This document shows, in pieces, positions 22,023 through 41,493 of a stretch of DNA of 64,000 bases. Each line of letters opens with the position of its first letter. Within the stretch, counting starts at the first letter, position 1. A program made the position numbers and the translations under genes. The notes under the pieces were generated by a model that was not told the DNA's origin, made no database searches, and saw only the letters and a program-made list of their open reading frames with translations. This DNA comes from a virus, in the IMG/VR virus record IMGVR_UViG_3300020220_004906, positions 11,463-75,462 of that record; one strand, 5' to 3'.

Positions 22023-23353
22023 ACAGATTGTATTTTGTCAGATGGTTTCTGACTCATATAATACAATCTTTTCGGCAAATTTTCAACCAGCTTGTCCAGA
22101 GTGTTGGTGCTCATGGCCCACATGGGAGTGTCCTGCAGCATGAATGCTATCTTGGGTTTGATTCCAGATCTCAATAGTGCTCTTGGTATTTTATTTCTAA
22201 CAAATATGATTTTGGTCCGCGGGGAGATCCTTTTATTGCTGACGCTCAATGCATGCAAGGTTTTCCATTGATCATATATTAGCTTACGCTCTTCCATGGA
22301 TGTTTCTGCTCCATAGATAAAATCCGCGTTAGGAAACTGGTCGACCTCTGGATCTGGATCCAGAGACATGGGTTGATTGAGCTCGAAACCAAACGTTATC
22401 TCGTCCTTGGCAATACCCGCTGACTCAAATTCCTGCAGCCACTGGTACACTGGCGTTATTTCATTCTTCACATCAAGTTCTCCGCTGAACGGACAGATTG
22501 CTGGAAGATCTCCTAACTCGATGATGGCTTGTAGTAAGGTTTTTTTATCATAAACTTTTCTGTCCACAAACAAATTAGTATCAGATGCATAGGCTATTTT
22601 TTCTGCTAGGCTTTTTGCAGGTGCAGAATTATTTCTTGTGCAAGAAACACGGATATGTTTCAATTGATCTCGCTGTTGAAGATACGACAGCGATTGGCAG
22701 TTTTGTTGCCAATAATCTGCAAGTGAGTTGGGAGCATTGATCAGTTTTATCGAGTCATACTCGATGTCAACAATGATAGGTAGATACTTTTTCTTTTCTT
22801 GTTTTATTTCTTCATAGTCAGTTAAAATTTTAAGGTTCAATATCTTGAAATCATATCTCACCGCTATCAGCGTGACATAGTAGGCCACAGTGTCGGTGTA
22901 ATTCATTGTCCATTTTTTTGTCTCCCCATCATACAACATAGGAACTAATTCTTGTGTCTTCTTTTTCAGACATCTTATCAATGCAATTAATTTCTCGTTG
23001 TAAGGAAATCTTATTTCTATAACTTCTCTGCCGTCTTCCGCATGCAATATGTCTATACTTTTTTCAAAATTTATTATCCTGAAGGGCTGGTCGTATCTTG
23101 GATTTTTAATAAGCTCGTCAACATCGAAATCAAATTTTTCTAACAGAGTTTTATATCTCTTTAAGAACAGCATGGCCAGTGTACCCTGCTTCTCTGTCCA
23201 GGCGTATGGAGCGTCAGCCAGACTTTGAATGGTTTTGAAATCTTTGTCATGCACACCAGAACTTTGCCATGCTCCTCCTGTATTGTAAGCCAGTATTCTT
23301 ATAGCGGCTTCCATGGATTCCAGCTGGCGTCGTGTTGTGTTTGTGTTTGACAT
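22019..23353 (-). CDS. Hypothetical protein
   Basis: Long ORF; start moved to ATG 23353, downstream of TTGACT-16 nt-TATACT. Confidence 0.7.
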   Translation of the reverse strand: MSNTNTTRRQLESMEAAIRILAYNTGGAWQSSGVHDKDFKTIQSLADAPYAWTEKQGTLAMLFLKRYKTLLEKFDFDVDELIKNPRYDQPFRIINFEKSIDILHAEDGREVIEIRFPYNEKLIALIRCLKKKTQELVPMLYDGETKKWTMNYTDTVAYYVTLIAVRYDFKILNLKILTDYEEIKQEKKKYLPIIVDIEYDSIKLINAPNSLADYWQQNCQSLSYLQQRDQLKHIRVSCTRNNSAPAKSLAEKIAYASDTNLFVDRKVYDKKTLLQAIIELGDLPAICPFSGELDVKNEITPVYQWLQEFESAGIAKDEITFGFELNQPMSLDPDPEVDQFPNADFIYGAETSMEERKLIYDQWKTLHALSVSNKRISPRTKIIFVRNKIPRALLRSGIKPKIAFMLQDTPMWAMSTNTLDKLVENLPKRLYYMSQKPSDKIQSV

Positions 23354-23408
23354 TTTTGGATAATTAAGTATAACATATAAGGTAATAAAGTCAATTGATC
23401 TGCCAATT

Positions 23409-23813
23409 ATGAGAAGAAAAAAAGCATTGAAATTGAGGCACAAGATAGTGAAAGAGACCCTTGATCACAAAGGACCGTATCTTACGAATAGACGTGCCAT
23501 ACATCGCTGGTTTCGTTACATCAATCGAGCAGTCTTTAACAACCAGTTACCCAATTTCGACAAGATCATAATCAAGAAATGGTTGAAACAGGCCATGGGG
23601 CAGGTGTGCGCCTATCCAGATAAAAATCCTACAAGATTTGAATTAGAGATGGTACGCAAGTATCAGACAAAGAAAGATTTTATAGAAACACTTGCACACG
23701 AGATGATACATCTATACCAATTTGCATTGAAGAAGGACACCGGAAATCACAACAGCATTTTCTACAGCTTCCGTCCTAGATTTAAATTTATCGGCTTAGG
23801 ACTTTCTCTGTAA
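23409..23813 (+). CDS. SprT-like zinc metalloprotease
   Basis: TLAHEMIH plus downstream H..F. Confidence 0.8.
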   Translation: MRRKKALKLRHKIVKETLDHKGPYLTNRRAIHRWFRYINRAVFNNQLPNFDKIIIKKWLKQAMGQVCAYPDKNPTRFELEMVRKYQTKKDFIETLAHEMIHLYQFALKKDTGNHNSIFYSFRPRFKFIGLGLSL

Positions 23814-24540
23814 ATTCAGCGTAGGTCATAAGTTTTGTATTCTTTAAGTCGATACCTGTTTGTAAATGATGCAATGGTTCTGTTGGATTATCGTGTACCA
23901 CAGTAAATTGACAATATGGTCTCTGTTTAATACAAATTCTAAATTGAGTCAGCCATCCCTCATGCAAAGTGTCGCTGTCGCGAGGACCATAGTGTTCCGT
24001 GTTTTGATAGATGTTGTTCAATTGCCCCTTGCCATATTCTTTGAAATCAAATCCTATCAAATATATATTTTTATGTCCATGCACACAGGCTGTCCAGATG
24101 GCGGCGGAACCAGATACCCAATGAGGATTATTTGGAATCAAGTTTAGTTTCTTTTTACTTTTAGTGTATTCTAAAGCCGGAGCATAACACACGCATTTTT
24201 CATAAATTTTTTCATCTACTATGGTTTGGGAAATAAATCTATCCACCATGAATAGATAATCGGGAATAAAATCTCTGTAGAGAGCATTACATCCATATAT
24301 TTGGCCAGAATCTCTGAGAAGATTGAGATCGAATCCTTTTCTGGAGGGGCCGTTGCCGATAATGTAGGCATTGCCTCGAGGCCGTGCCTTAACTACATCC
24401 TCAACATATTCCGTTTCGTGGGTTTTCTTGCCCCCTTTGATTGACACTTTGGTTATGATAGTTTCGCCTTTGTAAGGGGTCCACTCGATAGCAGTCACGG
24501 TGTGTAAGTCTTTGTGTCGTATGATTGATTGAACAGGCAT
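23788..24540 (-). CDS. Maf/DUF115/sialyltransferase-fold putative glycosyltransferase
   Basis: IIGNGPS, GCNA, YLIGFDF. Confidence 0.6.
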   Translation of the reverse strand: MPVQSIIRHKDLHTVTAIEWTPYKGETIITKVSIKGGKKTHETEYVEDVVKARPRGNAYIIGNGPSRKGFDLNLLRDSGQIYGCNALYRDFIPDYLFMVDRFISQTIVDEKIYEKCVCYAPALEYTKSKKKLNLIPNNPHWVSGSAAIWTACVHGHKNIYLIGFDFKEYGKGQLNNIYQNTEHYGPRDSDTLHEGWLTQFRICIKQRPYCQFTVVHDNPTEPLHHLQTGIDLKNTKLMTYAEFTEKVLSR

Positions 24541-25413
24541 CTATTTTATGTATCTTTCTGCAAGTCTCTGCCGTATTCTAGACCATGGCAATCCATCTCT
24601 GATTTCCTGTACTGTCCATTCCGTATAAGAAAGTTTGTGCGCCCAACCTAGTCTATTAGGCATTGCCGGTTTTTCTAAATCAAAAAGATTTGCATTGCCC
24701 ACTTCATAACACAAACTTGATTCACTCACAAAAACTGGTATACCATTAATTACAGATTCTATGGCTGGATTGCTGGAATGATTCACAACCGCCCAAGTCG
24801 ATTTGAGTGTTTTTTTAAAATCAGTATCATCATATGTGGTCCAATCCCTTTCAGGTTTTTTAATTTTCACGTTAATATATTTTTTCCCGTCAAAATCAAA
24901 GCTGTTTCTAGGATGTGGTCTAACCAGTATGGGTTTTTGACTGTATTTTCTGATTTCTTTTATCTGCTGTTCTATCCAGTGAGACATACGTGGATTTTTT
25001 TGCCATTGCTGACTAGTGTCGTGTTGTCCGCATATTACTATTACATTTCCTGTTTGCTTCCACGGTTTCATTTCTATATTGAATAGTGGCCATCTTTTGT
25101 TATCAAATATCTGATTCGCAAAATCAGCATCTCTGTTGATACCATTGATGCCCATCTTCCAAGTCGTGTTTCTCTTTAGGCCGCCCACCTCCATTACTAC
25201 CACTGGTTTATTTTTTGCTTTGTATTTTTCCCATATTTGTCTATTGCTGGCCATCCTTCCTAACCATAACACAGACCAAATCACAGCAACGTCACAATCT
25301 CTATCTTCATTGATGTATATGTTTTCTCCTTTTGCTCTGAGGTGTTCTATTAGCGCGGCGAACACGGGTTTACTGTTGAGACTGCCATTGTCTGGAAATA
25401 ATGCTATTTTCAT
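24541..25413 (-). CDS. KpsS/KpsC-like capsule-synthesis glycosyltransferase
   Basis: GQHDTS, VRPHP, VNHSSNPAIE..GIPVF. Confidence 0.65.
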   Translation of the reverse strand: MKIALFPDNGSLNSKPVFAALIEHLRAKGENIYINEDRDCDVAVIWSVLWLGRMASNRQIWEKYKAKNKPVVVMEVGGLKRNTTWKMGINGINRDADFANQIFDNKRWPLFNIEMKPWKQTGNVIVICGQHDTSQQWQKNPRMSHWIEQQIKEIRKYSQKPILVRPHPRNSFDFDGKKYINVKIKKPERDWTTYDDTDFKKTLKSTWAVVNHSSNPAIESVINGIPVFVSESSLCYEVGNANLFDLEKPAMPNRLGWAHKLSYTEWTVQEIRDGLPWSRIRQRLAERYIK

Positions 25414-26318
25414 TTTAATGACGTTGGTACTTTCTTCCAATAATCTATTTCCCACACATTTGCAGGAGCATTCTTCATTGGTGGTCTTAAATCATTTTTA
25501 GAGCTGCTGCCTAATTTTTTTCTCTTGCCTTTCATGTGATCCATGTATAATCCCAATTCGCTGTTCACGAACACGTGATGTCCCTTGACATTTTTATCAT
25601 AGCCTATGTCATTTACTTCTATATTATATTTTTTTTGGAAATATTTTACAAGATGCCAAAATAAAAAACTATCATGCCATTCTAATAATTTGAAAACTTC
25701 ATCTGTGATAAACAAATTTTCCCATTCTTTGGCAAATTCTTGTACATGGGCGTGCCTTAGATTGTAGCCAACGAAACCGCACTCTGGATATTTGCCCCCA
25801 TCATTTAGAGAAAATCTTTCTCTGCCGAGATATGTAACCATAGTATTGCTGGGTAAAAGTTTCATTAGAAACTCTAATGGCATGGATCTAAAAGTAAATG
25901 TGTCAGCATCGATCCATATTACATAATCATATTGTCTGGAATTACGTATGGCATTGATCACGCAGAAAACTTTATTACTGAATCTCACAGCGTCCCAAAG
26001 AAAGGAACCCTTATTTTTGTCCAATCCCCCCTTTTGTTGCAGACAAGCGGGCCTCCTGACTCCTCCCGGTATCTCCTGTAGCTCACCACAAGCCACTGGA
26101 TCGTTCCTGTGTCGATTTTTAAATTTCAACAACTCCGGTTCGGCAGCGTTGAGATCAATCCATGTGATCCTGGGATGGTCGTACTTGGGTTTGGGCTCTT
26201 CGAGATAGACCACAAGGTCAACTTCTGCAGGCCATTGTTCGGCAATGCTCTTGATACCTCTGCCGGAATAGAGATCCCATGTGCCTGGTTTGTAAGAAGT
26301 GATTACTTTGATTTTCAT
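25410..26318 (-). CDS. GT-A glycosyltransferase
   Basis: WIDAD (DxD), ECGF, WHD, HMKG. Confidence 0.75.
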   Translation of the reverse strand: MKIKVITSYKPGTWDLYSGRGIKSIAEQWPAEVDLVVYLEEPKPKYDHPRITWIDLNAAEPELLKFKNRHRNDPVACGELQEIPGGVRRPACLQQKGGLDKNKGSFLWDAVRFSNKVFCVINAIRNSRQYDYVIWIDADTFTFRSMPLEFLMKLLPSNTMVTYLGRERFSLNDGGKYPECGFVGYNLRHAHVQEFAKEWENLFITDEVFKLLEWHDSFLFWHLVKYFQKKYNIEVNDIGYDKNVKGHHVFVNSELGLYMDHMKGKRKKLGSSSKNDLRPPMKNAPANVWEIDYWKKVPTSLK

Positions 26319-26346
26319 GTTAAATATATTATATTTAATTGATACC

Positions 26347-26946
26347 ATGTCACAAAAAATTATTTACAATTTAACCTATATGCCTCCTGGACACACAGGA
26401 CATCTATGCCCAACCGAGCATGTGGTCAATGCATGGAAACATTTTTACAATTCATTTCCATTTACCAACGTATTGGAATTTGGATTCAATACCGGTTGGA
26501 GCAGTGCCTTGTTGATGACTATGTTTCCATCAGTAAAGATCACCAGCATCGAGATAATAGAAATAGACAGCTCCAGGAAGGGTGCGGAAATCCTCAAAGA
26601 AAAATTTCCCGGCAGGCATGAAATAGTGTGGGGTGACAGTCAGAAAGTGGCTATGGAGGTCATGCTAGGCAGCAGGTCGTTGCCGATATCAGGGTATGAC
26701 TTGGCATTCATCGACGGGGGACATTGGCCAGAGATAGTGCAGAGGGATATAGAGCTGTCCCTGCATCTCGGCATAAAGAATTTCGTATTCGATGATGGAA
26801 ACCATCCCCATATCAAACCCGGCATAGAAAAATTTAAAAATCTTAAATTCGTTCAAAAGCGAACATACTTTGATACGAGGTACAAAGCCAATTACTATAA
26901 ATTTAAAACGAGAGAAATTGATCTATGCCATTATCAAGTACATTGA
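26347..26946 (+). CDS. SAM-dependent methyltransferase (Methyltransf_24-like)
   Basis: LEFGFNTGWS, GDS, FIDGGH, FDD. Confidence 0.8.
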   Translation: MSQKIIYNLTYMPPGHTGHLCPTEHVVNAWKHFYNSFPFTNVLEFGFNTGWSSALLMTMFPSVKITSIEIIEIDSSRKGAEILKEKFPGRHEIVWGDSQKVAMEVMLGSRSLPISGYDLAFIDGGHWPEIVQRDIELSLHLGIKNFVFDDGNHPHIKPGIEKFKNLKFVQKRTYFDTRYKANYYKFKTREIDLCHYQVH

Positions 26947-28662
26947 TCACAACATCTCATACTTTTTGATCCAATCTTGCATGACCCAGGCTGGAACCAG
27001 AGCTTTGCTTGCCTTTTGGCTTACCGTTATCCTATCCAGTCTTGATTTCTCTCCGACACAGCTAGTATAAAACTTTTTTAAATTGTTATCAATGCCCATG
27101 GCCAGCCACTGTCCGATTGGCACAGTCCAACCTGTCTTTTGTTTCGTAATTATTGCATCTGGCAGTAATCCTTTGTAGGCAATTTTGGTCAATAACTTTG
27201 TCTCGTGTTTATTTTTTCCTATCTTGTGACTGGTTGGTATGTCCAGGCAATATTGCATGAACATTTTTGTGGTCAAAGGAAATCTCCCCTCCATGCCAAA
27301 CGCCATGCCGTATTTGTCGTTCCTAGAGAAGAATTCATTTGGTGCTTGTGCCACACAATCAAGGGCCATATAAGATGCTACGGGATCCACAGGATTCCAT
27401 AAGGTGTCAGGATACAACTTTATTAACTCTTCTCTCAACACCGCGGCCGGCAGAGTCGGCACTCCCACCACTAGTGGTCTTTTTATTCTTTGTAACCATT
27501 TGTCTATTATGTCTCCCCATGAACGGAACTTTTCATCTTTCATTTTCCAATACTTGGGATATCCTCCCAGTATCTCATCGCCCATGTCTCCCGCCATGGT
27601 TATGACGGTGCCGGCCTCCGACAATTTGCGATTGGTATGATAATACATGCTCATGCTGGGGTTGTAGACAGGTTGTTCCATGTAGTAGATGCTGTCTTTC
27701 CATGCCGCGATGACATCGTTGGGTGTGATAATAACTTCGGTGTGATTGAATTTTTCTTGCACAGCTAAAATTTTTGCACAGGCGGCATCACTGTTGTAAT
27801 CTTCATCGGTCACGACATTGGGCTGCATTTTATTAGTGAATGTGTTCACAGCTCCATGTATCTTCATCATCTCATATGCTACCACGCTGCTATCCAACCC
27901 ACCGCTGAGGAATACCCCCATCTGTCTTCGTCCTATGCTTGACATCTGCACAGTCTTTCTCACACGATCTCTGAACTCCGCGGGATCAAAGGATCGATTA
28001 GATCTTGGAGTGATGTAAATTCTTTCTGATGATTTTATTCTTTTTCTTGCACAGTCATATGTGATTGTTTCTCCCGGCATCAGTTGTTTTATGTTGGAGA
28101 AGAATGTGTTCCTGGTGGCATTGATGCCGGTGAGGCTCATGCAGCTGATCGCCAACTGATCTATCTTCCTGGAGTTGGGCACCTGATCCAGCATGCCTTT
28201 TATTTCTGAACCAAATATTAATCCCTCCGCGGTTTCAGCATAGTATAGAGGTTTGATGCCAGCATGATCTCTACTCAATATCAGTTGCTTTGACTGGGTG
28301 TTGTAATAGGCAAAGGCATGCATGCTGTCAATCTCTTCAACAAATTTTTCACCATGGTGATCCAATCCCCATGCTAACAATTCTGTATCACATGTGGTAC
28401 GGGGTTTAAAAGCTGTGTATTTTTTTATCAAATCAAAATAATTAAAAATCTCTCCATTATATATTAATATGTTGCCTCTCTCAGTGTGCCATGGCTGATG
28501 CGACACTTGTGGCTGATCGGTTATGCTTAAAAGATTATGTCCTAGAGTGACAGAATCATCATTCCAAATATCCTGTCCATCTGGTCCTCGATGTTCGCAG
28601 ATTTTTATATACTTTTCTATAAAGTCTCTATCTCGTTTGGTTATGCCATATATGCCACACAT
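26947..28662 (-). CDS. asnB: Asparagine synthase (glutamine-hydrolysing)-family amidotransferase
   Basis: MCGI Ntn Cys, HRGPD, NGEIFN, LSGGLDSS, GDEILGGY. Confidence 0.9.
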   Translation of the reverse strand: MCGIYGITKRDRDFIEKYIKICEHRGPDGQDIWNDDSVTLGHNLLSITDQPQVSHQPWHTERGNILIYNGEIFNYFDLIKKYTAFKPRTTCDTELLAWGLDHHGEKFVEEIDSMHAFAYYNTQSKQLILSRDHAGIKPLYYAETAEGLIFGSEIKGMLDQVPNSRKIDQLAISCMSLTGINATRNTFFSNIKQLMPGETITYDCARKRIKSSERIYITPRSNRSFDPAEFRDRVRKTVQMSSIGRRQMGVFLSGGLDSSVVAYEMMKIHGAVNTFTNKMQPNVVTDEDYNSDAACAKILAVQEKFNHTEVIITPNDVIAAWKDSIYYMEQPVYNPSMSMYYHTNRKLSEAGTVITMAGDMGDEILGGYPKYWKMKDEKFRSWGDIIDKWLQRIKRPLVVGVPTLPAAVLREELIKLYPDTLWNPVDPVASYMALDCVAQAPNEFFSRNDKYGMAFGMEGRFPLTTKMFMQYCLDIPTSHKIGKNKHETKLLTKIAYKGLLPDAIITKQKTGWTVPIGQWLAMGIDNNLKKFYTSCVGEKSRLDRITVSQKASKALVPAWVMQDWIKKYEML

Positions 28663-28663
28663 G

Positions 28664-29647
28664 CTATAATCCTAATCTATGTTTAAATCTACGAAACACT
28701 GTGCCATTAGATATCTCTTCCGTGGTCCACATTTTATATCCTATGTCATTTAACCATTGTGACCTATCAGGCAATACTGGTGATTCTATTTTGGTCAAGT
28801 CTTGGTTTGCCACAGGCCAGCATATTGCCAAATCTGACGTGCAGAAAGTAGGTATGCCTCTCACACAACTGTCTGTGCTAGCGGTGGAGTTGTGGGTGAC
28901 CACAGCATGACAATTGGCAATCGCTTCTTGAAAATTAAATCTATAGAATTTTTTATTATCTCCCGTAAAAAACTTAGGGCCTATAACTAATTCCACGTCC
29001 CCGGGAAATTCTTTTGCCCTGTCTGCTATCGCTGCCATATGATTAGGATGAGGCCTCACTAAAAATTTCCTGTGAGTCAATTTCCTCAGTGTGTCATAGA
29101 CTCCATTGAACCAATCGATCGGATCTAGCTCGTTCATGCTCCAGTTATCTTTGGGTTGTAGAACAAACAGTATCGGATCTTCGGGATTGGACTTCCTCCA
29201 GGGATCATTTTTAATATTCCATAAACTTTTCATCATTTCCCAACGATCTGGTGGAGAGTTGTCTGATAGGAAGTCGCCATTGTTCATGGGAGAATATAGA
29301 GCCACTCTCCAATGGTGATGAGGATGATCCACTGTGTTTCCAAAACTGCTCAGCAAACCACCATCAAATGTAATAATATAGATGCCTTTCTTTTTGGCAC
29401 GTTCCACAAGGTCCCTCCTTCTGCCCTTGGTGTGATGTATCTGTTTGTCACCACCATACCCAAACATGCAACCAATTGGAGCAGTGGGTTCCATCTCGTC
29501 TTGGCGCCAATTTCCTGTGAGATTTTCGTTCACAATCACGGGTTCGTCGCCGGATTTTTTTATACCCTCGGCCATGTGTTGCAATAATTCCCAGCTGGCT
29601 CCTCGACGTCTATCTTTCACTGTTCTTCTAAATATTTCAACTTTCAT
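28664..29647 (-). CDS. KpsS/KpsC-like glycosyltransferase
   Basis: LQPKD, VRPHP, VTHNSTA..GIPTF. Confidence 0.6.
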   Translation of the reverse strand: MKVEIFRRTVKDRRRGASWELLQHMAEGIKKSGDEPVIVNENLTGNWRQDEMEPTAPIGCMFGYGGDKQIHHTKGRRRDLVERAKKKGIYIITFDGGLLSSFGNTVDHPHHHWRVALYSPMNNGDFLSDNSPPDRWEMMKSLWNIKNDPWRKSNPEDPILFVLQPKDNWSMNELDPIDWFNGVYDTLRKLTHRKFLVRPHPNHMAAIADRAKEFPGDVELVIGPKFFTGDNKKFYRFNFQEAIANCHAVVTHNSTASTDSCVRGIPTFCTSDLAICWPVANQDLTKIESPVLPDRSQWLNDIGYKMWTTEEISNGTVFRRFKHRLGL

Positions 29648-30452
29648 CTAATATGCTCCATGCGTACCCATTTTGAATTTCTTCTTTTGTAAATTGTCCG
29701 TATGCCAAAGAATGATAGCAGGGCTCTCTATCCGCATACCTGGGCGTTTCTATCTTTGAGAAATCTAATTCTGCTATAGGAGCACATGAGTTCATTATGT
29801 CCGTAAACACGGGCACGCCTCTCGCTGTGGCTTCTATGGTTATGTTACTGTTAAATGCCACAATGGCATAAGTGTCATTCCAATCGATTGGTGTGGCAGT
29901 GTCCTCATTGTCGTTTGGGCCAGGCATCAGTCGACCGAACTCATCTATTTTGCTATCGGGATTATATCCTTTATTTCTCACAACTATGTCTCGATCTGTA
30001 TTAGCTCTTAAAATTTCTAAAGTTTTAGATAGCCAACCTTCCTGTTCGAACATGACCGCTATGCTGTGCGTGGGAGGGCATACTACAATTTTTTTTCCAT
30101 TCTTCTTCCATGGTTCGATCTTAAATGGGAAATATTTTTGAAAACGATCATCAGGCCTAGATTCTAAATAATTTTTTGCGTGATGGTTCTTGGTTATCCT
30201 CATGAGGTAAGGTTCGCTTCGGCTCATCCCCCAATAAGGTCGGTCAATGAAATAGAAATCTATCTTGTTTTTGATAGCCCAATGATATACCATGTTGGTA
30301 CCCCTTAATATACCCATCAATATGACCTTGTCGGCATCTCTCTGCCGAAGTACTTGATCATATGGTAAAATTTTTGATCCTGGTAAACCCTGTTGGGCCC
30401 AACTTATGTATTTCTCTGTAGTGGGTCTATCAGTCTTGCTCAGATATATCAT
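29637..30452 (-). CDS. KpsS/KpsC-like glycosyltransferase paralogue
   Basis: DRPYW, VAFNSNITIEA..GVPVF, LAYGQFT. Confidence 0.55.
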   Translation of the reverse strand: MIYLSKTDRPTTEKYISWAQQGLPGSKILPYDQVLRQRDADKVILMGILRGTNMVYHWAIKNKIDFYFIDRPYWGMSRSEPYLMRITKNHHAKNYLESRPDDRFQKYFPFKIEPWKKNGKKIVVCPPTHSIAVMFEQEGWLSKTLEILRANTDRDIVVRNKGYNPDSKIDEFGRLMPGPNDNEDTATPIDWNDTYAIVAFNSNITIEATARGVPVFTDIMNSCAPIAELDFSKIETPRYADREPCYHSLAYGQFTKEEIQNGYAWSILDES

Positions 30453-30467
30453 TTGTTATTAATTATT

Positions 30468-31550
30468 CTATTTTTGCACCTGATTAATCAATTCAAATAG
30501 AGCGGACGTGTTTACGGTGATGTCATTGAAATCTTTTTTTCTTTTTACTCCTTTGGGTTTATCTCCTGCTATTGTCACTTTTTCACCCAATAATACATGG
30601 TGGGATAATCCCAAATGATGGCTTAAAACAGGATAGACTTTTTTATCTAATAATTCCTTTTGACTTATTTCTATGATTTTTGTTCCTGCCTGGCACCATA
30701 ATAGATTGGCTAATCCAGCTCCGTGTGTAGATATTACATGACTAGCTCCTGAAAAAAGTTCTATCTGTTTTTGGGTTATCATTCCAGATAGAGTAACGGT
30801 TTCCCAACCTTGCAGAGCCATGAACACTTCCTCGGCATTAATCAATTTCCTCGCGGGGGCATCCTCCCTGCTGATAAAAATTTTTCTTGTAGGCTCTATT
30901 TTCTGGCCAAATTTATGGCGGAGCCACTTTGGCATTTCTGGCACAGTCACGCCATCCTCATGATTGCTCATGGATGGCACCAAAAGATGCGCAAATTTCC
31001 ATGTTGTGTTTTTGGGCATCACGTAATATCTAAGTTCAGGAAATAATTCTCCGGCCACACGATCGAAATATTCACTGGAGTTGCTCAACACATAGATAAA
31101 ATCCGTATATTTGTGGCTGAATTTTTTTTCCATCAATCTAAACTTTGATATCACGTCGATCCAGATGTGCCAGGCGTTGTTGGCGCTGAGCTCATCGATG
31201 GGCAACCACACGTATTTGTACTCTTCCTCAAATTTTTTGGCGGGAGCAGATAGAGATATATCTATGTTCTCTCCCCATGCACTCCATAGCCCATGTGTCT
31301 TCTTTGGTTTGTATTTTGTATTATGCAATAGGGGCCATATGTGTGAGGTAATGAGATGATTTTCATTTGTTATCAACAAGGGTAAACTGTGTGTTGTACA
31401 GTCATGGAACTCAGCCATAAACGTGGGATTGGTGATAAAAGTTTTTCGAGGAGCATCAATATGATAATCAACGGTGTATTGATATGGTGCATCTAGTATA
31501 TCAAACCGTTCTATGAAGTATTGTATAGCTGATATATTTTTTACAATCAT
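30468..31550 (-). CDS. GT61 glycosyltransferase
   Basis: WH, IFISR..RKLIN, QIELF..HGAGLANLLW. Confidence 0.85.
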   Translation of the reverse strand: MIVKNISAIQYFIERFDILDAPYQYTVDYHIDAPRKTFITNPTFMAEFHDCTTHSLPLLITNENHLITSHIWPLLHNTKYKPKKTHGLWSAWGENIDISLSAPAKKFEEEYKYVWLPIDELSANNAWHIWIDVISKFRLMEKKFSHKYTDFIYVLSNSSEYFDRVAGELFPELRYYVMPKNTTWKFAHLLVPSMSNHEDGVTVPEMPKWLRHKFGQKIEPTRKIFISREDAPARKLINAEEVFMALQGWETVTLSGMITQKQIELFSGASHVISTHGAGLANLLWCQAGTKIIEISQKELLDKKVYPVLSHHLGLSHHVLLGEKVTIAGDKPKGVKRKKDFNDITVNTSALFELINQVQK

Positions 31551-31584
31551 TGTTTTTTCTATAATTATACTATATTATACATGA

Positions 31585-32250
31585 ATGTCCAAATTGTTTT
31601 CCAATGGTTGTAGTTTCTTATGCAGGAGGCCCAAAGACAATGTTGATACGTTTGTTGCAGAAGAATTAGCCCAACATTACAATTTGCAATTAACGAATCT
31701 GGCCATGGGTGGGCGGGGCAATGATCGTATCAGTTTTACCACCAAGGTTTGGTTTGAGCAGAATGGCACCAAGGATGTATTTGCCATTATAGGATGGAGC
31801 AGTATGCATAGGAATGACTACGTAACCAATGATGGTTGGAAGGCAGGAAGAGTCAAAGGATCGGAGCTGACGTGGCGCACCTGGAAAACGCTGGATAATG
31901 TCAGCTTCCTGATAAAGAATACTGGCTGGGATATAGATAACAATGCAATCATGAACTTTTTAGACAATGTGTTCGACATCCAAAATTATTTTGAAAGAAA
32001 AAATATACCCTATGTGATGTACAATGCAATGCCAAATAGCTTTGACACCGATGTATCTGATTTCAAAATCATACGAGATTCCATCAATATGCGAAGATTT
32101 TTCTCTCCGCAGATATCACACTTTGAATATGTGGTTGAAAAAAATTTGTTTGTAAGTCCACAAGATCCCCACCCCAGCACAGAGGGACACCGACAATGGG
32201 CAAAACTTTTACAAGAATTTATAGATGCTAACAATTTACGCACCATCTGA
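31585..32250 (+). CDS. SGNH-fold protein
   Basis: NGCSF, NLAMGGRGN, DPHP..GH. Confidence 0.7.
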   Translation: MSKLFSNGCSFLCRRPKDNVDTFVAEELAQHYNLQLTNLAMGGRGNDRISFTTKVWFEQNGTKDVFAIIGWSSMHRNDYVTNDGWKAGRVKGSELTWRTWKTLDNVSFLIKNTGWDIDNNAIMNFLDNVFDIQNYFERKNIPYVMYNAMPNSFDTDVSDFKIIRDSINMRRFFSPQISHFEYVVEKNLFVSPQDPHPSTEGHRQWAKLLQEFIDANNLRTI

Positions 32251-33037
32251 TAGTCCCAAGAGTAAATGCTGGGAAGTGTTTAAAGGAATACAAAGAACCT
32301 GGCCCGAGAAAACAGAAATAAAAAATAATCTGGACACAGATGCTAAATCTCCTGCTATGTTTTGGGGATTTATTAATAACAATATTAATCTTGTGCATCA
32401 ATTAGAGCAACAGCGATCTGAGTATTGGTACACAGACACACCTTATTTTGGGAGATTTAACAATTCAAACTTAAAGAATGATAATCACTACTGGAGAATT
32501 TGTAAGAATCAGATACATGCTAAATTTATAAGAGATTGTCCTTCGGATAGGTTTGATAAATTTAACTTACCAATAAAAACAAGAAATAAAAATCAAGGAG
32601 AATATATTCTTATCTGCCCCAGCAGTCTAGGTATACACAAATATCTTAAAAAAACCAATTGGACCAACAACACTGTCAATGAGATAAAAAAATATACCGA
32701 TCGACCCATTAAGATAAGAGAAAAACCCCGGAAGGCCGGAACGTCTGGTCCTAGTGTGGCTGCAGTATCTTTGGAGCATGATCTGCGCAATGCTTGGGCT
32801 TGCGTGACCAGTTGCAGTATCAGCGCAGTTGAGGCAGCGTTGGAAGGGGTTCCGATATTCAGTGATACAAAGAGTTTTGCTTGGATCATGTCATCGCCGG
32901 GACTGTCGGAAATAGAAGATCCTTTTTACACTGATCCATCTAAATGGCTGTATTCCTTGGCTTATCAACAGTTTACGCCCGAGGAATTTGAAAATGGTAT
33001 GGCAGTCAGCATATTAAAAAACTTAAATATTTTATAA
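32225..33037 (+). CDS. KpsS/KpsC-like glycosyltransferase paralogue
   Basis: DTPYF, VTSCSISAVEA..GVPIF, LAYQQFT. Confidence 0.55.
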   Translation: MLTIYAPSDSPKSKCWEVFKGIQRTWPEKTEIKNNLDTDAKSPAMFWGFINNNINLVHQLEQQRSEYWYTDTPYFGRFNNSNLKNDNHYWRICKNQIHAKFIRDCPSDRFDKFNLPIKTRNKNQGEYILICPSSLGIHKYLKKTNWTNNTVNEIKKYTDRPIKIREKPRKAGTSGPSVAAVSLEHDLRNAWACVTSCSISAVEAALEGVPIFSDTKSFAWIMSSPGLSEIEDPFYTDPSKWLYSLAYQQFTPEEFENGMAVSILKNLNIL

Positions 33038-33732
33038 TGAAAAATTGTGTGGTACAATTCTTTATGGAGACTAAGACGTTCTCCAATCCTGATTTTGTAA
33101 ATATAAAAGTAAATCAAGAACTTTTACAATATTCAAAAAAGTCTGCCAAAATTTATGCAGACAAATGTAAAGTTGATTATATTTTAATTTCAACGCCAAG
33201 AATAAATCACGTACATCCAACATTCGAACGATTTGATTTATTTTTAAATAATGATTGGTGGGAAGAATACGATCAAATTTTATATTTAGACACCGATGTG
33301 ATTTGTTGGCCAACTGCACCCAATATTTTTGAAATGTATCCTAGAAATAATACTTTCAAGCCTTGTGTAGATAAAAGAGCTTTAAAGAGATCAATCGATT
33401 GGCATGAGGAAAGCGAAAAAAATAGCATACTAAAAGTTTTTGAGCCAAAAGTACTTAGGAATGAAAGATTTAATGCAGGGGTGTTCATGTTAAATGAGTA
33501 TTCTGCCAAAACCATTGCGCCTTTCTTAAAATTTAAAGAATATCCAGACGACGATAACAAGATTTTAGTGTACGCAACCTTAAAAAGTCAAGTTGTTGTT
33601 GAAAAAATGGATTATAGGTTTAATAAAAAAAATGGTGGTCCAAAGTGTTGGTTTGGGCACGGTTATGGGCAAAAAAAATACCTGCCAGGTAATAAAATAT
33701 TAGTAGAGTCCAATAAAATATTCAAAGATTAA
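33037..33732 (+). CDS. GT8/GT34-like glycosyltransferase
   Basis: YLDTD, FNAGVF. Confidence 0.75.
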   Translation: MKNCVVQFFMETKTFSNPDFVNIKVNQELLQYSKKSAKIYADKCKVDYILISTPRINHVHPTFERFDLFLNNDWWEEYDQILYLDTDVICWPTAPNIFEMYPRNNTFKPCVDKRALKRSIDWHEESEKNSILKVFEPKVLRNERFNAGVFMLNEYSAKTIAPFLKFKEYPDDDNKILVYATLKSQVVVEKMDYRFNKKNGGPKCWFGHGYGQKKYLPGNKILVESNKIFKD

Positions 33733-34181
33733 TAGAAAAACTTTTTTATCTTTTTGTTGGTGATATCGTCAAAATAAATTTCGCAAAAGGGCCTTTGCGG
33801 CAACTGGTGCTTTCTAGCAAGCACGTTGAAAGTTTTGTCAGTTTCTATTATTAAAATTGTGTTGCTGCAGTAGTTTAATATTTTTTTATCAGTTCCATTT
33901 GCAAGCTCTATTTCTCCCCCCTTGCTCCTATCTGTGCGTTGTTGGAAAAACCAATAGCCGATATATCCGTTGATCTTTTTTGGAGTCAACATGCTGGTGA
34001 AATCATCGTGAAAGTATACTTCGACTTTCATCTCATCGGTGAATTTTCTCCAATGTTCATGCCCTATGTTATTCCATTGCTCATACAACTTGTCGTAGAT
34101 GTTTCTTGATACTAGAGCACCGGAGTAAACATGGCATATGGGTTTTCTATGACAATTGATATTGGCTATGGACCAGCTCAC
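33729..34181 (-). CDS. Hypothetical protein (possibly degenerate 2OG-Fe(II) fold)
   Basis: GGEIEL..NTILI..R beta pattern; metal ligands unclear. Confidence 0.4.
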   Translation of the reverse strand: MSWSIANINCHRKPICHVYSGALVSRNIYDKLYEQWNNIGHEHWRKFTDEMKVEVYFHDDFTSMLTPKKINGYIGYWFFQQRTDRSKGGEIELANGTDKKILNYCSNTILIIETDKTFNVLARKHQLPQRPFCEIYFDDITNKKIKKFFY

Positions 34182-34852
34182 GACGAAAAAAGATTTATAA
34201 GTTCTTTCTTCCAGACATCACCATATTCGCAGTTCCTATAATTTTCAAACCACGGACCACCTTCGGTGTAATGTAGGATCTTTGGATGCCCGTCTCTGGG
34301 TTCCTTGTACCAGCCCACAAGCCAATTGTATTCGCAAGGCATAGAGCCAATTTCAGAATCTTCTAACCAACTGAATCTGTGCAAAAATTTTCCTGTCTCT
34401 TTGTTTAATAATTCTGGAGTTAATATTTGATTTTTTGGATGGGCACAATTCCATAACACCATTGAACTCCAGTTCTTTCGGGGATAAGCAAGTTGTAATT
34501 GCCCATCCATTTTCACACCTTCTTCTGGATTGTAATCATGTTGTACACACACTACCGCTTTACTGTCATCGTAAAATTGTTCTAGCTCCATGGCATCTAT
34601 TCGCCAGACAAAATCACAGTCACAGAATACTGCCCATCCTTGATAATTCTGCAGATATGGAATAAAAAATCTTGTGAAAGTGAATTCTGTGCTGGCCAAT
34701 TTGTCGATATCTCTGGTGTAGATTCCAGACTCCCTGAGCAGTTTCATTTTTAATGGAACCACATTAACGTCCTTATTTCTCCGTTTGATCGAGTGCTCAC
34801 ACACCTGATATGATATGTCTTCTCGAGTATCATATCCTACGAATATTTTCAT
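34178..34852 (-). CDS. GT-A glycosyltransferase resembling the plant CDI family
   Basis: IFVGYD.RE, STEFTFTRF, DCDF, YPRKNWSS, HYTEGGPWF. Confidence 0.8.
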   Translation of the reverse strand: MKIFVGYDTREDISYQVCEHSIKRRNKDVNVVPLKMKLLRESGIYTRDIDKLASTEFTFTRFFIPYLQNYQGWAVFCDCDFVWRIDAMELEQFYDDSKAVVCVQHDYNPEEGVKMDGQLQLAYPRKNWSSMVLWNCAHPKNQILTPELLNKETGKFLHRFSWLEDSEIGSMPCEYNWLVGWYKEPRDGHPKILHYTEGGPWFENYRNCEYGDVWKKELINLFSS

Positions 34853-35440
34853 CTATATCCTTTTGGTAATAATCTTATATATTTGTTGCCAATTATTTAC
34901 TCTTACGATATGTTCATGTGTTAATCCTTGGTTGTAAATGTGATTATACAATAAAGGTTTCAATCCATATTCCAATCCCTTGATAGCATTGCTCCATTTG
35001 TCTTCTATCCACCATAATCCAGTATTGTGGAACTCTGCCAATGCGGAATCCTTATGATCTCCTGTCTCCAATATGAAATAGTTTGCAAACACGGTATCAC
35101 CAAATAATTCTTCCAATCTTTTTTTCCTTAATCTTTGAGCCGGTACATCAGATGTTTGTGATGTGATGGGAATAAATGTCCAACCCTCCGCATGCAGCAA
35201 TTTCACCCAAGTTTGAGAGTCCGGCATGGGAGATTGCGTGGCCATCCATGCACTCTTGTTAAATTCTCTGATCAATTCGCTGCCGTTGTCTTTGTGTATG
35301 CCATATCTAACGCTCATGTCGTATTCTGTATTTGTATTTTTTAATTCTTTATATCCTTTAGAATGCATCCATTTTTTAAAATGATCCTCCCATTCTAATA
35401 GCACGCCGTCCACATCTGTCAATATTATTTTATTAAGCAT
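34853..35440 (-). CDS. HAD phosphatase / 5'(3')-nucleotidase-like
   Basis: DVDGVL, IEDK, YN. Confidence 0.8.
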   Translation of the reverse strand: MLNKIILTDVDGVLLEWEDHFKKWMHSKGYKELKNTNTEYDMSVRYGIHKDNGSELIREFNKSAWMATQSPMPDSQTWVKLLHAEGWTFIPITSQTSDVPAQRLRKKRLEELFGDTVFANYFILETGDHKDSALAEFHNTGLWWIEDKWSNAIKGLEYGLKPLLYNHIYNQGLTHEHIVRVNNWQQIYKIITKRI

Positions 35441-36014
35441 GTATTTTTTTCAACATAAATGATTTGAAATTATCTTCATTTGTGATGCCTATGAATTCAA
35501 ATTTATTTTTACAAACATATTCTTCTACTGCGCGATTGACTCCAAATATCACTCCATGTTTTTTTTTCGGTTTAGTCGTCCAATCATGTCCGCATATAAA
35601 TCCACCTAGTTTAATTTTTTCTCCCCATTCGATCAAATCCTTTGATACTCCTTCATAACTGTGATCCGCATCTATGTAAATCCAGTCGAGACTGTTATTC
35701 TCAAATAATTTGCTGGCATCTACGCTAGATTCTCTGATAATTTCCACCTCTAAATATTTTTGGAATTTTTTTCTTACATCATTATAATTTTTTTCCTGCC
35801 TTAGTGTTTCTTCTTGATTACGAAATTTTCCTGTCATGACATCAATCCAGCTGTCAATAAGGTAAAGTTTTTTTGGTCTCACTGCCGATAATATAAGTTC
35901 TGAAAAACGCCCGTGCTCAACTCCAAGTTCGGCTCCGATAGAATCTTTTGGCAAAAACTCTAATAGGCCCTGCCTGTCAAATGGTAAAATTTTTATGTTA
36001 TCTGATAGTGGCAT
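35433..36014 (-). CDS. SAM-dependent methyltransferase (Methyltransf_24-like)
   Basis: ELGVEHG, YIDADHSY, GHDW. Confidence 0.82.
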   Translation of the reverse strand: MPLSDNIKILPFDRQGLLEFLPKDSIGAELGVEHGRFSELILSAVRPKKLYLIDSWIDVMTGKFRNQEETLRQEKNYNDVRKKFQKYLEVEIIRESSVDASKLFENNSLDWIYIDADHSYEGVSKDLIEWGEKIKLGGFICGHDWTTKPKKKHGVIFGVNRAVEEYVCKNKFEFIGITNEDNFKSFMLKKIHA

Positions 36015-36456
36015 CTTCCATACCCGCCACTCGTAGTTTGACTATGTTGGTCAATTGCCATTGTTTTTGGTCCAGTCCCTTCGTTATACCCAACCACTTG
36101 TTTCTCAGCAGAGCGAACTCATTGATTATTTTTTCCATATCCACGACATCTGATTCACCATCCACGTACTTGTCGGCATCTCGAGAAGTCAGTGCCCTGT
36201 TGTAGTTTTCTAGGAACTTTTTAAATGTCTTTGACCTCAATCTTCTATTTTCAATGTGTAGATACTCTAATATGGCTTCGATTTCTTGCAATTGATTGAA
36301 TCTTTGCTCCACTACTCCTGGCAATGATGCTGCAGATTTTTCCAGACTGCCAAAAATATATATCTCTTTACGTGCTGTTTCCAATTCTTGCTCAAAGAAC
36401 TTGATGCAGTCTGGTATTAAACTAATATCTTGGCTGACTTTTGTATACCAACTCAT
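35998..36456 (-). CDS. uvsY: Recombination mediator UvsY
   Basis: Helical 152 aa, KYVDGE..KLRVAG C-terminus, next to uvsX. Confidence 0.7.
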   Translation of the reverse strand: MSWYTKVSQDISLIPDCIKFFEQELETARKEIYIFGSLEKSAASLPGVVEQRFNQLQEIEAILEYLHIENRRLRSKTFKKFLENYNRALTSRDADKYVDGESDVVDMEKIINEFALLRNKWLGITKGLDQKQWQLTNIVKLRVAGMEDATIR

Positions 36457-41483: not shown

Positions 41484-41493
41484 ACTGTATTTA

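Follow-up and report, generated by a model that had tools for sequence, protein, structure and literature searches.

The retaining beta-Kdo glycosyltransferases KpsC/KpsS (GT107), the N-terminal module of WbbB (GT99) and KrkA (GT140) have a modified GT-B fold. The solved proteins KpsC, WbbB and KrkA all act on lipid-linked glycans. Assembly of the LPS-core/LOS type uses lipid acceptors on the cytoplasmic side of the membrane, as does that of the KpsS/KpsC type, for which phosphatidylglycerol is the acceptor. LPS/LOS enzymes include the GT8 and Cst families. Kdo synthesis is also encoded by a virus, Cafeteria roenbergensis virus. Glycosyltransferases encoded by mycobacteriophages decorate capsid and tail-tube proteins (Freeman et al. 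2023, as cited in PMC12619734); as summarized there, these are few, soluble phage enzymes acting in the cytoplasm, with no mention of a Kdo type. Runs of GT-A and GT-B genes from uncultured phages were linked to DNA glycans that include a Kdo-like acid as well as di- and trisaccharides (bioRxiv 10.1101/2023.12.21.572611; PMC13326640), and the available text of these reports defines the clusters by either a ThyA-type hydroxymethylase or a C5-methyltransferase paired with a 5mC oxygenase. In pelagimyophages, glycosyltransferases lie within a tail-fibre 'host recognition cluster' (PMC7029224); the accessible part of that paper proposes O-chain modification, names only GT8 and does not describe a Kdo-transferase-like family.

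The locus described here comes from an uncultured giant freshwater phage and was analyzed within a window of 64,000 nucleotides (the whole stretch of DNA studied). Between positions 23788 and 36014, 15 ORFs of at least 150 aa follow each other back to back, never more than 34 nt apart (31551-31584 being the widest gap). The preliminary description had counted 13 near-contiguous genes between a SprT-like gene and uvsY; the flanks and the near-contiguity were confirmed, while the number had to be raised to 15. The g12 ORF (150 aa) had not been counted. We found no paper describing such an island. Its genes and flanks are:

23409-23813, plus strand: SprT-like flank gene (PF10263, 40.4 bits, cut-off 25.6)
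23788..24540, minus strand: g01, 250 aa, candidate GT42/MptE(Maf)-like CMP-sugar transferase (profile A5)
24541..25455, minus strand: g02 (P304), beta-Kdo-transferase-like GT-B protein, RPHP subfamily (AlphaFold2 model, motifs)
25410..26348, minus strand: g03 (U312), GT-A-like candidate with DxD (motif, orthologues, ESM Atlas)
26299..26946, plus strand: g04, Methyltransf_24 methyltransferase (PF13578, 37.7 bits, cut-off 26.3)
26947..28662, minus strand: g05, AsnB-type glutamine amidotransferase (TIGR01536, 304.4 bits, cut-off 267.1)
28664..29647, minus strand: g06 (P327), g02 paralogue, RPHP subfamily (alignments A1 and A2)
29637..30452, minus strand: g07 (P271), g02 paralogue, RxK(P/G) subfamily (alignments A1 and A2, motif counts)
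30468..31550, minus strand: g08, GT61 glycosyltransferase (PF04577, 73.6 bits, cut-off 27)
31585..32250, plus strand: g09 (U221), predicted SGNH/GDSL-fold O-acyl esterase or transferase (AlphaFold2, Foldseek)
32225..33037, plus strand: g10 (P270), g02 paralogue, RxKP subfamily (alignments A1 and A2, motif counts)
33037..33732, plus strand: g11, GT8-family GT-A (PF01501, 25.8 bits, cut-off 24.3; phrog_28746, E 5.6e-28)
33729..34181, minus strand: g12 (U150), 150 aa (ESM Atlas lead)
34178..34852, minus strand: g13 (U224), GT8-like GT-A, island core gene (orthologues, motif)
34853..35440, minus strand: g14, HAD-superfamily phosphatase, NT5C-like (phrog_420, E 4.1e-28)
35433..36014, minus strand: g15, Methyltransf_24 methyltransferase (PF13578, 56.2 bits, cut-off 26.3; phrog_2675, E 4.9e-20)
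35998-36456, minus strand: UvsY, the other flank (phrog_231, E 3.6e-15)

Nine of these genes are glycosyltransferase-like (four GT-B paralogues, one GT42/Maf-like, one GT61 and three GT-A), as anticipated from the first inspection and now backed by profile, orthologue, motif and structure matches. The others are AsnB, SGNH, two methyltransferases, HAD and g12. The block is very likely a glycan-building island.

The paralogues g06, g07 and g10 align with each other and with g02, at 20-26% identity to the latter. For g02, the start at M15 (25413) is probable, the 290-aa form being the commonest among homologues. Its AlphaFold2 model (pLDDT 93.3) matched KpsC, WbbB and KrkA best, with VIA-align Z values of 14.4, 13.3 and 11.4, compared with at most 10.5 for generic GT-B proteins. 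Among 48,161 representative PDB chains, the top four were KpsC (twice), WbbB and KrkA (Z 13.7-11.2), followed by a fifth at 10.7. The (K/R)XHP motif, given in the accessible part of PMC12887879 as a CMP motif common to sialyl- and Kdo-transferases, is kept in two of the four paralogues, P304 and P327: R179, H181 and P182 are invariant in P304, and R-x-H-P is found in both groups, including 9/9 members of the P327 group. As in the retaining beta-Kdo enzymes, a later Ser motif follows (K/R)XHP in two of the four (Ser228 is invariant). P271 and P270 carry Lys in place of the His of the HP motif. Unlike the retaining beta-Kdo enzymes, the phage-encoded proteins consist of a single module, and all four lack the Asp nucleophile of QXXXD; P304 reads Q144xxxS148, QxxxS occurs in 40/40 P304 orthologues, and the P271 and P270 groups have no Gln there. 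Since this Asp is replaced, a double-displacement reaction as in KpsC, WbbB and KrkA is probably not used. The paralogues matched neither Pfam Capsule_synth nor, by sequence, any PDB chain. Thus, the earlier label 'KpsS/KpsC-like' for four proteins holds for the fold (by the g02 model) and, in two of them, for the CMP motif, but not for the catalytic Asp or a Capsule_synth match. The family comprises at least 2,187 clusters, is unannotated and looks virus-only.

A donor of the Kdo type is probable, an assignment drawn from fold and gene context. CMP-Kdo is suggested because kdsB or kdsA lies in or beside the island of two relatives: in L025, kdsB (NF003952, 196.7 bits, cut-off 193) is within the island and adjoins two paralogues, and in L086, the P304 homologue has both a kdsB-like gene and kdsA (NF003543, 333.8 bits, cut-off 242) at a distance of about 5 kb. 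Neither kdsA nor kdsB was found in the 75-kb contig, and a CTP_transf_3 gene was present in only 1/47 viral records of relatives, most of them fragments. Since the QXXXD nucleophile is missing, another CMP-sugar or an altered chemistry may apply instead.

The early proposal of a Maf/sialyltransferase-fold protein agrees with g01, whose profile A5 matched Cst-II and Cst-I (E 4.7e-5 to 4e-4; Cst-II 4.7e-5) with alignment of the blocks GNGPS..CN..Y and SG..G(Y/H)K.IYL.G(I/F)DF. MptE-like was matched by 23/28 of its orthologues and CST-I by 11/28, all under the gathering score. The GT61 gene g08, likewise expected, scored well above its cut-off and opens the minus-strand run g08 to g01. The three proposed GT-A proteins were borne out by the PF01501 match of g11, by the orthologues of g13 and by the DxD motif and neighbours of g03. 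GT8 was matched by 9/17 g13 orthologues (best E 3.2e-9), g13 itself being without such a match; D78 and D80 of its 'FCDCDF' are invariant, and it is 48% identical to a 'putative glycosyltransferase' of Mosig and 34% to gp166 of Caulobacter phage C2. In g03 (probable start M11, 26318), W145, D147 and D149 of 'WIDAD' are invariant among 39 sequences, 8/39 orthologues matched GT2 weakly, and its neighbours in the ESM Atlas are clusters of viral proteins only, close to GT8/Nucleotid_trans.

The tailoring set named at the outset (two methyltransferases, AsnB, SGNH and HAD) was supported by profiles and the g09 model, with the HAD match below its cut-off. The g05 product combines Pfam Asn_synthase and GATase_7, begins with MCGI and, from its AsnB type, is predicted to amidate a carboxylate. 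The g09 model (pLDDT 92.4) matched, among the Foldseek matches listed, almost exclusively GDSL/SGNH esterases or PatB; DUF6071 was matched by 14/21 orthologues, D194 and H196 are invariant, and S10 is nearly so. For g04, which lies opposite to its neighbours, the start is uncertain (ATG at 26347 is likely), and no homologue was found in 80 related loci. The second methyltransferase gene, g15, overlaps the end of uvsY. With PF06941 at E 0.002 (under the cut-off), a DVDGV motif and no PDB sequence match, g14 is an uncertain member of a glycan pathway. Searches of Pfam, PHROG and NCBIfam gave no match for g12; ESM Atlas feature scores of 0.92-0.93 to virus clusters, some with PF13640, and an H-x-D...H pattern spotted by eye point weakly to a 2OG-Fe(II) oxygenase.

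Since 15 contiguous genes encode soluble sugar-adding or decorating proteins, the phage appears to build a complex acidic chain inside the cell. The block may serve as an assembly line in the cytoplasm, with an acidic oligosaccharide of complex, decorated structure as its product. The four paralogues and GT42-like g01 would use CMP-activated ulosonic acids, with CMP-Kdo the likeliest donor and, judged from the 75-kb contig, drawn from the host pool. The GT-A and GT61 enzymes would add neutral sugars from NDP-sugars. AsnB would amidate a sugar carboxylate, the methyltransferases would O-methylate, and the SGNH enzyme would put on or take off O-acyl groups. Least certain is the acceptor: the chain would be made directly on proteins of the virion (fibres, sheath or capsid decoration) without a lipid carrier. 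We prefer virion proteins to host envelope glycolipid and to DNA as the acceptor, with a probability of roughly 0.4.

No membrane segment was predicted in the 15 proteins (Kyte-Doolittle 19-residue mean, maximum at most 1.46, this value falling in the probably spurious N-terminal extension of g04). As the preliminary description had stated, exporters are missing: profiles for an initiating phosphoglycosyl transferase, Wzx and an ABC-2 exporter (PF02397, PF00953, PF01061, PF01943) each matched 0/5 records, i.e., the 75-kb contig and four relatives, one of them a 345-kb genome rated 99% complete, with positive search controls. That description had concluded that a cytoplasmic pathway acts on virion or DNA rather than on exported polysaccharide. 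The soluble enzymes fit the cytoplasmic part, but export does not follow as excluded, since products on lipid acceptors leave by host machinery and the phage needs no exporter of its own; DNA is now weak. On such a route, the soluble or peripheral enzymes would extend either a phosphatidylglycerol-Kdo primer or lipid A-core (LOS) on the inner side of the inner membrane, host MsbA/Lpt or KpsMT would export the product, and the altered surface could, e.g., block superinfecting rival phages. This fits the nearest solved structures, all of enzymes that process lipid-linked glycans, and the GT8, Cst-type and AsnB-type enzymes, kinds characteristic of LPS/LOS and O-antigen loci, and the accessible part of PMC7029224 proposes such a role for pelagimyophage glycosyltransferases. 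Yet no membrane-anchoring segment was predicted in the 15 proteins, new LPS would presumably leave existing surface receptors in place during one lytic cycle, and homologues occur in settings that fit this route poorly, as described below. Envelope remodelling is thus considered unlikely, though it is the first of the alternatives.

The island sits in the replication/recombination module of the window, not in the structural module, with g15 to g12 following uvsY without a gap. Its best promoter-like site, TGGACA-16-TATAAT (31591-31564; 11/12 of the sigma-70 consensus), is just upstream of g08 and of the same kind as the sites ahead of uvsX and gp32; all such calls are consensus matches only, with 83 sites found versus 55 expected. 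Sites of this kind suggest expression with early or middle genes, as envelope remodelling would have it. The T4-late-like word ATAAATAC stands ahead of three structural genes and of no island gene. Module, sigma-70-like site and missing late-like word count against a virion acceptor.

This position could also suit DNA hypermodification by the island enzymes, as could the dNMP kinase and QueC-like genes in the window, the basic P304 (pI 9.6) and the phage GT-A/GT-B enzymes reported, in the available text of bioRxiv 10.1101/2023.12.21.572611, to decorate 5hmC with glycans of one to three sugars and with a Kdo-like acid. However, a thymidylate-synthase (ThyA)-family hydroxymethylase was found in 0/5 records including the 99%-complete relative (controls positive), and nine transferases far exceed the need of any known DNA glycan. 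In the Tet_JBP search, the control profile matched nowhere. The GT-B enzymes of that report are described as resembling T4 beta-glucosyltransferase, which is absent among the matches listed for the P304 structure. We regard DNA as an improbable acceptor.

In related giant T4-like phages, the equivalent site (uvsW to uvsY) holds an island of 6.9-13.3 kb (13 loci spanning both flanks). P304, U312 and U224 each occur in 13/13 complete islands, whereas AsnB (2/13), SGNH (2/13), GT61 (5/13) and GT8 (3/13) vary; over all related loci, AsnB was counted in 25/80. Since only three genes are constant, the others could be independent additions, and the enzymes might serve a free or small-molecule-linked oligosaccharide, a non-virion cytoplasmic protein or separate targets without a single pathway; g14, being NT5C-like, might instead act in nucleotide metabolism. 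We consider this reading very unlikely, as a single pathway better accounts for 15 gapless genes and for transferases that co-vary with tailoring enzymes over dozens of relatives.

Homologues elsewhere support the virion reading, but only indirectly. Cultured phages that carry the family include Caulobacter phages C2 and CcrColossus and Pelagibacter phage Mosig. In C2, the tail-fibre/tail genes gp160-162 are immediately followed by two family members (gp164, gp165) and by gp166, the U224 homologue, a location pointing to the virion and away from the host envelope. Among the matches listed, the viral proteins whose predicted structures come nearest to P304 (TM 0.75, E 8e-18) include four from Tetraselmis virus 1, of putative function and named 'capsule polysaccharide biosynthesis proteins'. 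This virus belongs to a different realm and infects a different host, an alga not known to have an LPS or capsule pathway; these look-alikes, too, point to the virion and argue against the envelope. The pelagimyophage glycosyltransferases reported within a tail-fibre cluster (PMC7029224) are a further pointer to the virion. The mycobacteriophage enzymes, as cited, are likewise soluble phage transferases, whereas the present island has nine plus tailoring enzymes, lies in a replication module, and its glycan is deduced from genes. If virion proteins are the acceptor, the variable tailoring genes would give related phages differing surface 'serotypes'. In Pelagibacter phage Mosig EXVC030M, homologues of U312 and U224 form a single run with methyltransferase genes, a sulfotransferase gene and two paralogues of the RxKP type; this cluster is smaller than the present island and lacks AsnB, GT61 and any RPHP-type paralogue. 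The g07 subfamily, RxK(P/G), occurs in both Mosig and C2.

The block between the SprT-like gene and uvsY (window 23788–36014), for which the preliminary description counted 13 genes while giving 14 functions, was found to hold 15 ORFs of 150–571 aa (g01 to g15 in coordinate order), g12 (150 aa) being the extra one; the block itself was upheld. The largest gap between ORFs amounts to 34 nt, and the genes are arranged in three runs:

g08 to g01, minus strand: run 1, interrupted by plus-strand g04
g09 to g11, plus strand: run 2
g15 to g12, minus strand: run 3, directly after uvsY

The flanks named previously, an SprT-like gene (PF10263, 40.4 bits) and UvsY (phrog_231), were confirmed, and the reported absence of transmembrane proteins was borne out, since a membrane-spanning hydrophobic stretch was present in none of the 15 island proteins.

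Four of the island proteins, g02 (304 aa), g06 (327 aa), g07 (271 aa) and g10 (270 aa), could be aligned over their full length, with 20–26% identity to g02 and 17 invariant columns. No family of Pfam, PHROG or NCBIfam was assigned to these paralogues, the sole exception being a weak GT52 match of g02 (E 0.0034). Pfam Capsule_synth (PF05159) yielded no match at E ≤ 10 in the six frames of the whole contig, and a 63-sequence profile of the paralogue family (A2) found nothing at E ≤ 10 among the PDB sequences. The fold of g02 was taken from an AlphaFold2 model based on the 63-sequence alignment (pLDDT 93.3, pTM 0.89), and g06, g07 and g10 were placed by alignment. When the model was compared with the PDB by Foldseek, KpsC, WbbB and KrkA ranked on top, with E values from 4.8e-8 (KpsC) to 1e-5. 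VIA-align gave Z scores of 14.4 for KpsC (rmsd 3.9 over 236 residues), 13.3 for WbbB and 11.4 for KrkA, as compared to Z ≤ 10.5 and rmsd > 6 for generic GT-B structures. In an exhaustive comparison with 48,161 representative chains, the top four were KpsC (twice), WbbB and KrkA (Z 13.7–11.2), and the next chain reached 10.7. Thus, judging from the g02 model and its nearest structures KpsC, WbbB and KrkA, the earlier label 'KpsS/KpsC-like' is correct at the level of the fold.

For beta-Kdo transferases of this kind, PMC12887879 describes a QXXXD motif, whose Asp acts as the nucleophile and whose Gln binds the carboxylate of Kdo, a CMP-binding motif (K/R)XHP that is common to sialyltransferases too, and phosphate-holding Ser residues. 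In the g02 group, R-x-H-P was present, with R179, H181 and P182 invariant (24 orthologues), and the g06 group showed R-x-H-P in nine of nine sequences. The g07 and g10 groups do not have (K/R)XHP and carry R-x-K-(P/G) in its place. Ser228 was invariant in all 63 family sequences. The register of the QXXXD position was set from sequence context (G-Q after the opening strand of the C-terminal Rossmann domain) rather than by residue-level superposition; at this position, Q-x-x-x-S was observed in 40 of 40 g02 orthologues, the g06 group had no Asp at Q+4 and an Asp at Q+3 in seven of nine sequences, and the g07 and g10 groups were without Gln. The phage paralogues are therefore like GT99, GT107 and GT140 in their fold (KpsC, WbbB and KrkA being nearest), and g02 and g06 have kept (K/R)XHP, whereas the QXXXD Asp and the Capsule_synth match are missing. 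Owing to this motif pattern and the lack of a Capsule_synth match, the paralogues fall outside GT99/GT107/GT140 by sequence and catalytic motif. They represent a separate branch of the KpsC/WbbB/KrkA fold, which probably still binds a CMP-sugar and whose route is probably not Asp double-displacement. To our knowledge, the known members of the fold all use the Asp double-displacement mechanism; Asp-less variants of this fold constitute a natural experiment for enzymology. The Lys-for-His subfamily is not a degenerate copy; it is the sole type in Pelagibacter phage Mosig, and in Caulobacter phage C2 it is paired with a copy of the RPHP type.

Relatives of the paralogue family are encoded in at least 597 IMG/VR stretches as judged by a pattern scan, from which 80 related loci were kept. 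A profile search of 5.8 billion proteins returned at least 2,187 clusters (90% identity) at E ≤ 0.001, and among the 120 clusters listed there was no Pfam domain and no name beyond 'hypothetical protein'. This abundance without annotation implies that a very common phage function has remained unannotated. In the 80 loci, the island was positioned with UvsW, a 474-aa protein and SprT on one side and UvsY/UvsX on the other. The 13 loci spanning both flanks contained islands of 6.9–13.3 kb. In these complete islands, the homologues of g02, g03 and g13 were each present in 13 of 13, while g01, the three other paralogues and the HAD gene were found in 7 of 13, GT61 in five, GT8 in three, and AsnB, SGNH and the 150-aa protein g12 in two each. 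The g15 methyltransferase occurred in none of the 13, and a homologue of g04 in none of the 80 related loci. A constant core with a shifting periphery is the look of glycan loci under diversifying pressure.

The 474-aa protein is encoded between UvsW and SprT in the window as well (22019–23443, minus strand) and adjoins the island in 43 of the 80 related loci. Its sole family match is a weak one to HARP (E 0.0098), and its annotated TTG start, which results in a hydrophobic N-terminus, may be spurious.

A scan of genome collections yielded 11 further loci with the island (L082–L092), all on MAG contigs filed under Rickettsiales, Verrucomicrobia, Neomarinimicrobiota, Saccharibacteria and others. 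One of these contigs, at 60,409 bases, is equal in length to the IMG/VR viral contig that carries the related locus L025. The MAG-filed contigs are probably mis-binned phage DNA, and they were therefore not taken as bacterial gene context.

Besides the four paralogues, the island encodes further transferases and tailoring enzymes. The profile of g01 matched eight PDB sequences of Cst-II/Cst-I sialyltransferases (E 4.7e-5 to 4e-4), and both its GNGPS N-terminal nucleotide-binding block and its G-x-DF block aligned with Cst-II. The Pfam matches of g01 stayed under the gathering score (MptE-like, 16.2 bits, cut-off 34.6; CST-I, E 0.011, 15.6 bits, cut-off 25), as did every match of its orthologues (MptE-like in 23 of 28, CST-I in 11 of 28). 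By sequence, g01 is a candidate GT42/MptE(Maf)-like CMP-sugar transferase. g08 belongs to GT61 (PF04577, 73.6 bits, cut-off 27), and g11 is barely over the gathering score of GT8 (25.8 bits, cut-off 24.3). g13 lacks a GT8 match of its own; GT8 was matched by 9 of 17 orthologues, and the DxD motif is invariant. DxD is also invariant in g03; GT2 was weakly matched by 8 of its 39 orthologues, and its ESM Atlas neighbours, virus-only clusters close to GT8/Nucleotid_trans, provide a lead. A comparison of the g03 and g13 profiles (A3 and A4) by hhalign was not significant (probability 0.3). Against the PDB sequences, WbbM was the sole match of the g13 profile (E 0.065), and nothing meaningful was obtained with profiles A1, A2, A3 and A6.

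The AlphaFold2 model of g09 had a pLDDT of 92.4, and nearly all Foldseek matches listed were SGNH/GDSL esterases or the O-acetyltransferase PatB (probability 1.0), which assigns g09 to the SGNH fold. In the g09 orthologues, S10 was near-invariant and G43, D194 and H196 were invariant; regarding the SGNH blocks, the Asn block was not found and the last block reads D-x-H, not D-x-x-H. DUF6071 was matched by 14 of 21 g09 orthologues. g05 was identified as AsnB (TIGR01536, 304.4 bits, cut-off 267.1), with Pfam matches to Asn_synthase (161 bits) and GATase_7 (98 bits) and with the Cys nucleophile in its N-terminal MCGI. g04 and g15 both exceeded the cut-off of Methyltransf_24. NCBIfam matched only AsnB among the island proteins, plus weak matches for g04 and g11. 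g14 is HAD/NT5C-like according to a sub-cut-off match, had no match in the PDB, and could equally serve nucleotide metabolism. For g12, a weak lead to 2OG-Fe(II) oxygenases was obtained.

With respect to the donor sugar, the 75-kb contig contained neither a KdsB/NeuA-family cytidylyltransferase gene nor kdsA, and a KdsB/NeuA-family gene was detected in 1 of 47 viral records of relatives, most of which are fragments. In the island of L025, kdsB (NF003952, 196.7 bits, cut-off 193) adjoins two paralogues, and a 2OG-Fe(II) oxygenase-like gene is also present. In L086, a locus on a 335-kb contig with a MAG label, kdsA (333.8 bits, cut-off 242) and a kdsB-like gene lie about 5 kb from the homologue of g02. 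Based on these genes in L025 and L086, CMP-Kdo is the most likely donor of the family; in this phage, it would be drawn from the host pool, as far as the contig shows. A 99%-complete 345-kb relative possesses neither kdsA nor kdsB, and its island encodes a GDP-mannose 4,6-dehydratase, a fused cytidylyltransferase-like/cupin gene, GT17 and several methyltransferases. Sugar supply varies between relatives. A fused gene combining a cytidylyltransferase-like domain with a mannose-6-phosphate-isomerase C-terminal (cupin) domain was seen at L086:3949–4746 and, in another related locus, at L068:3906–4661. Related islands also contain GDP-mannose 4,6-dehydratase, FkbM methyltransferase, GT17, a GSCFA-family protein and an APS-kinase-like gene.

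The window, which covers bases 11463–75462 of a 75,462-base IMG/VR virus record, carries the markers of a T4-like myovirus, namely a UvsW-type helicase, UvsY, UvsX and gp32, and in addition a DnaB-like helicase, primase, large terminase, sheath, tube, head closure and baseplate/fibre proteins. The large terminase was nearest to those of jumbo phages (Pseudomonas phage PA5oct and its kin, 55.5%; Agrobacterium phage Atu_ph07, 50.7%; Sinorhizobium phage Phosso, 48.0%), and CheckV estimated the completeness of the source contig at 14%. A megablast search of a phage collection with 23000–37000 gave no match at the DNA level. In twenty lake or freshwater metagenome DNA runs, 99–100% of the words sampled from the stretch were present, and among the holders listed there were no RNA runs.

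We tentatively propose, with a probability of roughly 0.3, that giant aquatic phages cover their particles with an acidic glycan that contains Kdo, resembles an LPS core and bears amide, methyl and O-acyl groups. Soluble island enzymes would build this glycan in the cytoplasm, directly on virion proteins, by means of a virus-specific branch of the Kdo-transferase fold that, since it has no Asp nucleophile, would use new chemistry. Exchange of the swappable tailoring genes would endow related phages with different surface 'serotypes'. In favour of virion proteins as the acceptor, Caulobacter phage C2 encodes two family members and a g13 homologue directly after its tail-fibre and tail genes. 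The nearest viral structural look-alikes came from the algal Tetraselmis virus 1 (four proteins, TM 0.75) and count for the virion because an LPS or capsule target is not available in that host. Glycosyltransferases of pelagimyophages are located within the tail-fibre cluster according to PMC7029224. Moreover, genes for lipid-carrier initiation or export were found in none of five records, a near-complete genome included.

Alternatively, the glycan could be assembled on a host-envelope glycolipid, which we consider rather doubtful. Every solved structural relative acts on lipid-linked glycans, and LPS-core/LOS-type routes require no phage exporter. Expression signals, read as consensus matches and not as functional evidence, would also favour this alternative. 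The best promoter-like site of the island is of the sigma-70 type, as before uvsX and gp32, and the T4-late-like word ATAAATAC, a candidate late promoter core, precedes structural genes only and is absent from the island. Its three copies, a chance number (3.08 expected), are each located just upstream of a predicted structural or virion gene:

17307–17314, minus strand: ATAAATAC, gene start at 17291
41487–41494, minus strand: ATAAATAC, gene start at 41483
57660–57667, minus strand: ATAAATAC, gene start at 57610

The T4 late word TATAAATA was not enriched (4 copies, 3.7 expected), and 7-mer enrichment revealed no clear promoter class. TATAATATA was enriched, with 7 copies against 0.72 expected and none of 100 shuffles reaching 7:

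7704, 20592, 25620, 26325, 31571, 48562 and 52690, all minus (the main coding strand): TATAATATA

Most copies lie 0–20 nt upstream of starts (g08, the probable g03 start, tail tube, dNMP kinase and an ORF at 20578), and those at 7704 and 25620 are inside ORFs. Possible readings of TATAATATA are an extended -10 element and a translation-start context. As it stands upstream of tail-tube (late-type) and dNMP kinase (early-type) genes alike, it gives no date for the island.

Phage DNA as the acceptor is a long shot. The island lies within the replication module, and phage glycosyltransferase clusters decorate 5hmC with disaccharides, trisaccharides and a Kdo-like acid, as stated in bioRxiv 10.1101/2023.12.21.572611. 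However, a ThyA-type hydroxymethylase (PF00303) was found in none of five records, in which the controls matched and of which this contig is 14% complete, and nine transferases exceed the need of any known DNA glycan. Tet_JBP (PF12851) was likewise found in none of the five records, its control also being without a match anywhere. T4 beta-glucosyltransferase was not among the structural matches listed for g02. Neither pI nor Ser/Thr content, considered for both the enzymes and the structural proteins, told the acceptors apart.

Phage glycosyltransferase clusters as a kind are known from pelagimyophages, from mycobacteriophage virion glycosylation and from DNA glycosylation, and PMC12619734 describes them in aquatic jumbo 'moraphages'. 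In the main texts of open-access papers and preprints, we found no KpsC-like transferase family or Kdo glycan island in tailed phages, and no Asp-less Kdo-transferase-fold family, four-paralogue expansion, fixed uvsW–uvsY placement or phage kdsA/kdsB link. Carried by virions, the glycan would form a phage 'glycocalyx' made from a sugar so far deemed a hallmark of the Gram-negative envelope, and it would influence host recognition and particle stability as well as grazing or immune recognition. On DNA or the host surface, the glycan would instead amount to an exclusion or anti-restriction system of unusual complexity. The acceptor is amenable to bench tests, as the core genes are present in cultured phages of Caulobacter and Pelagibacter.

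Several further features of the window were noted. Upstream, an unusual metabolic run (3–9655) comprises a class-III aminotransferase, two radical-SAM proteins (one with a SPASM domain), an FTR1-like permease fragment, an alpha/beta hydrolase and a TauD-family dioxygenase; within its bounds, the intergenic stretch 5343–6020 looks tRNA-gene-like by eye. A QueC-like gene (12164–12820) and a third radical-SAM-like gene (14285–15472) follow. At 57720–60455, a fibre-like 911-aa protein with a subtilase (Peptidase_S8) domain (residues 682–847) is encoded, and the gene directly after it (60457–61584) has an N-terminal Mtd_N (major tropism determinant N-terminal) domain. In the gp32/uvsX gap, a terminator-like hairpin (37843–37803, minus strand) includes the -35 of an 11-of-12 sigma-70-like promoter (TTGACA-17-TAAAAT), so that termination and re-initiation signals overlap.
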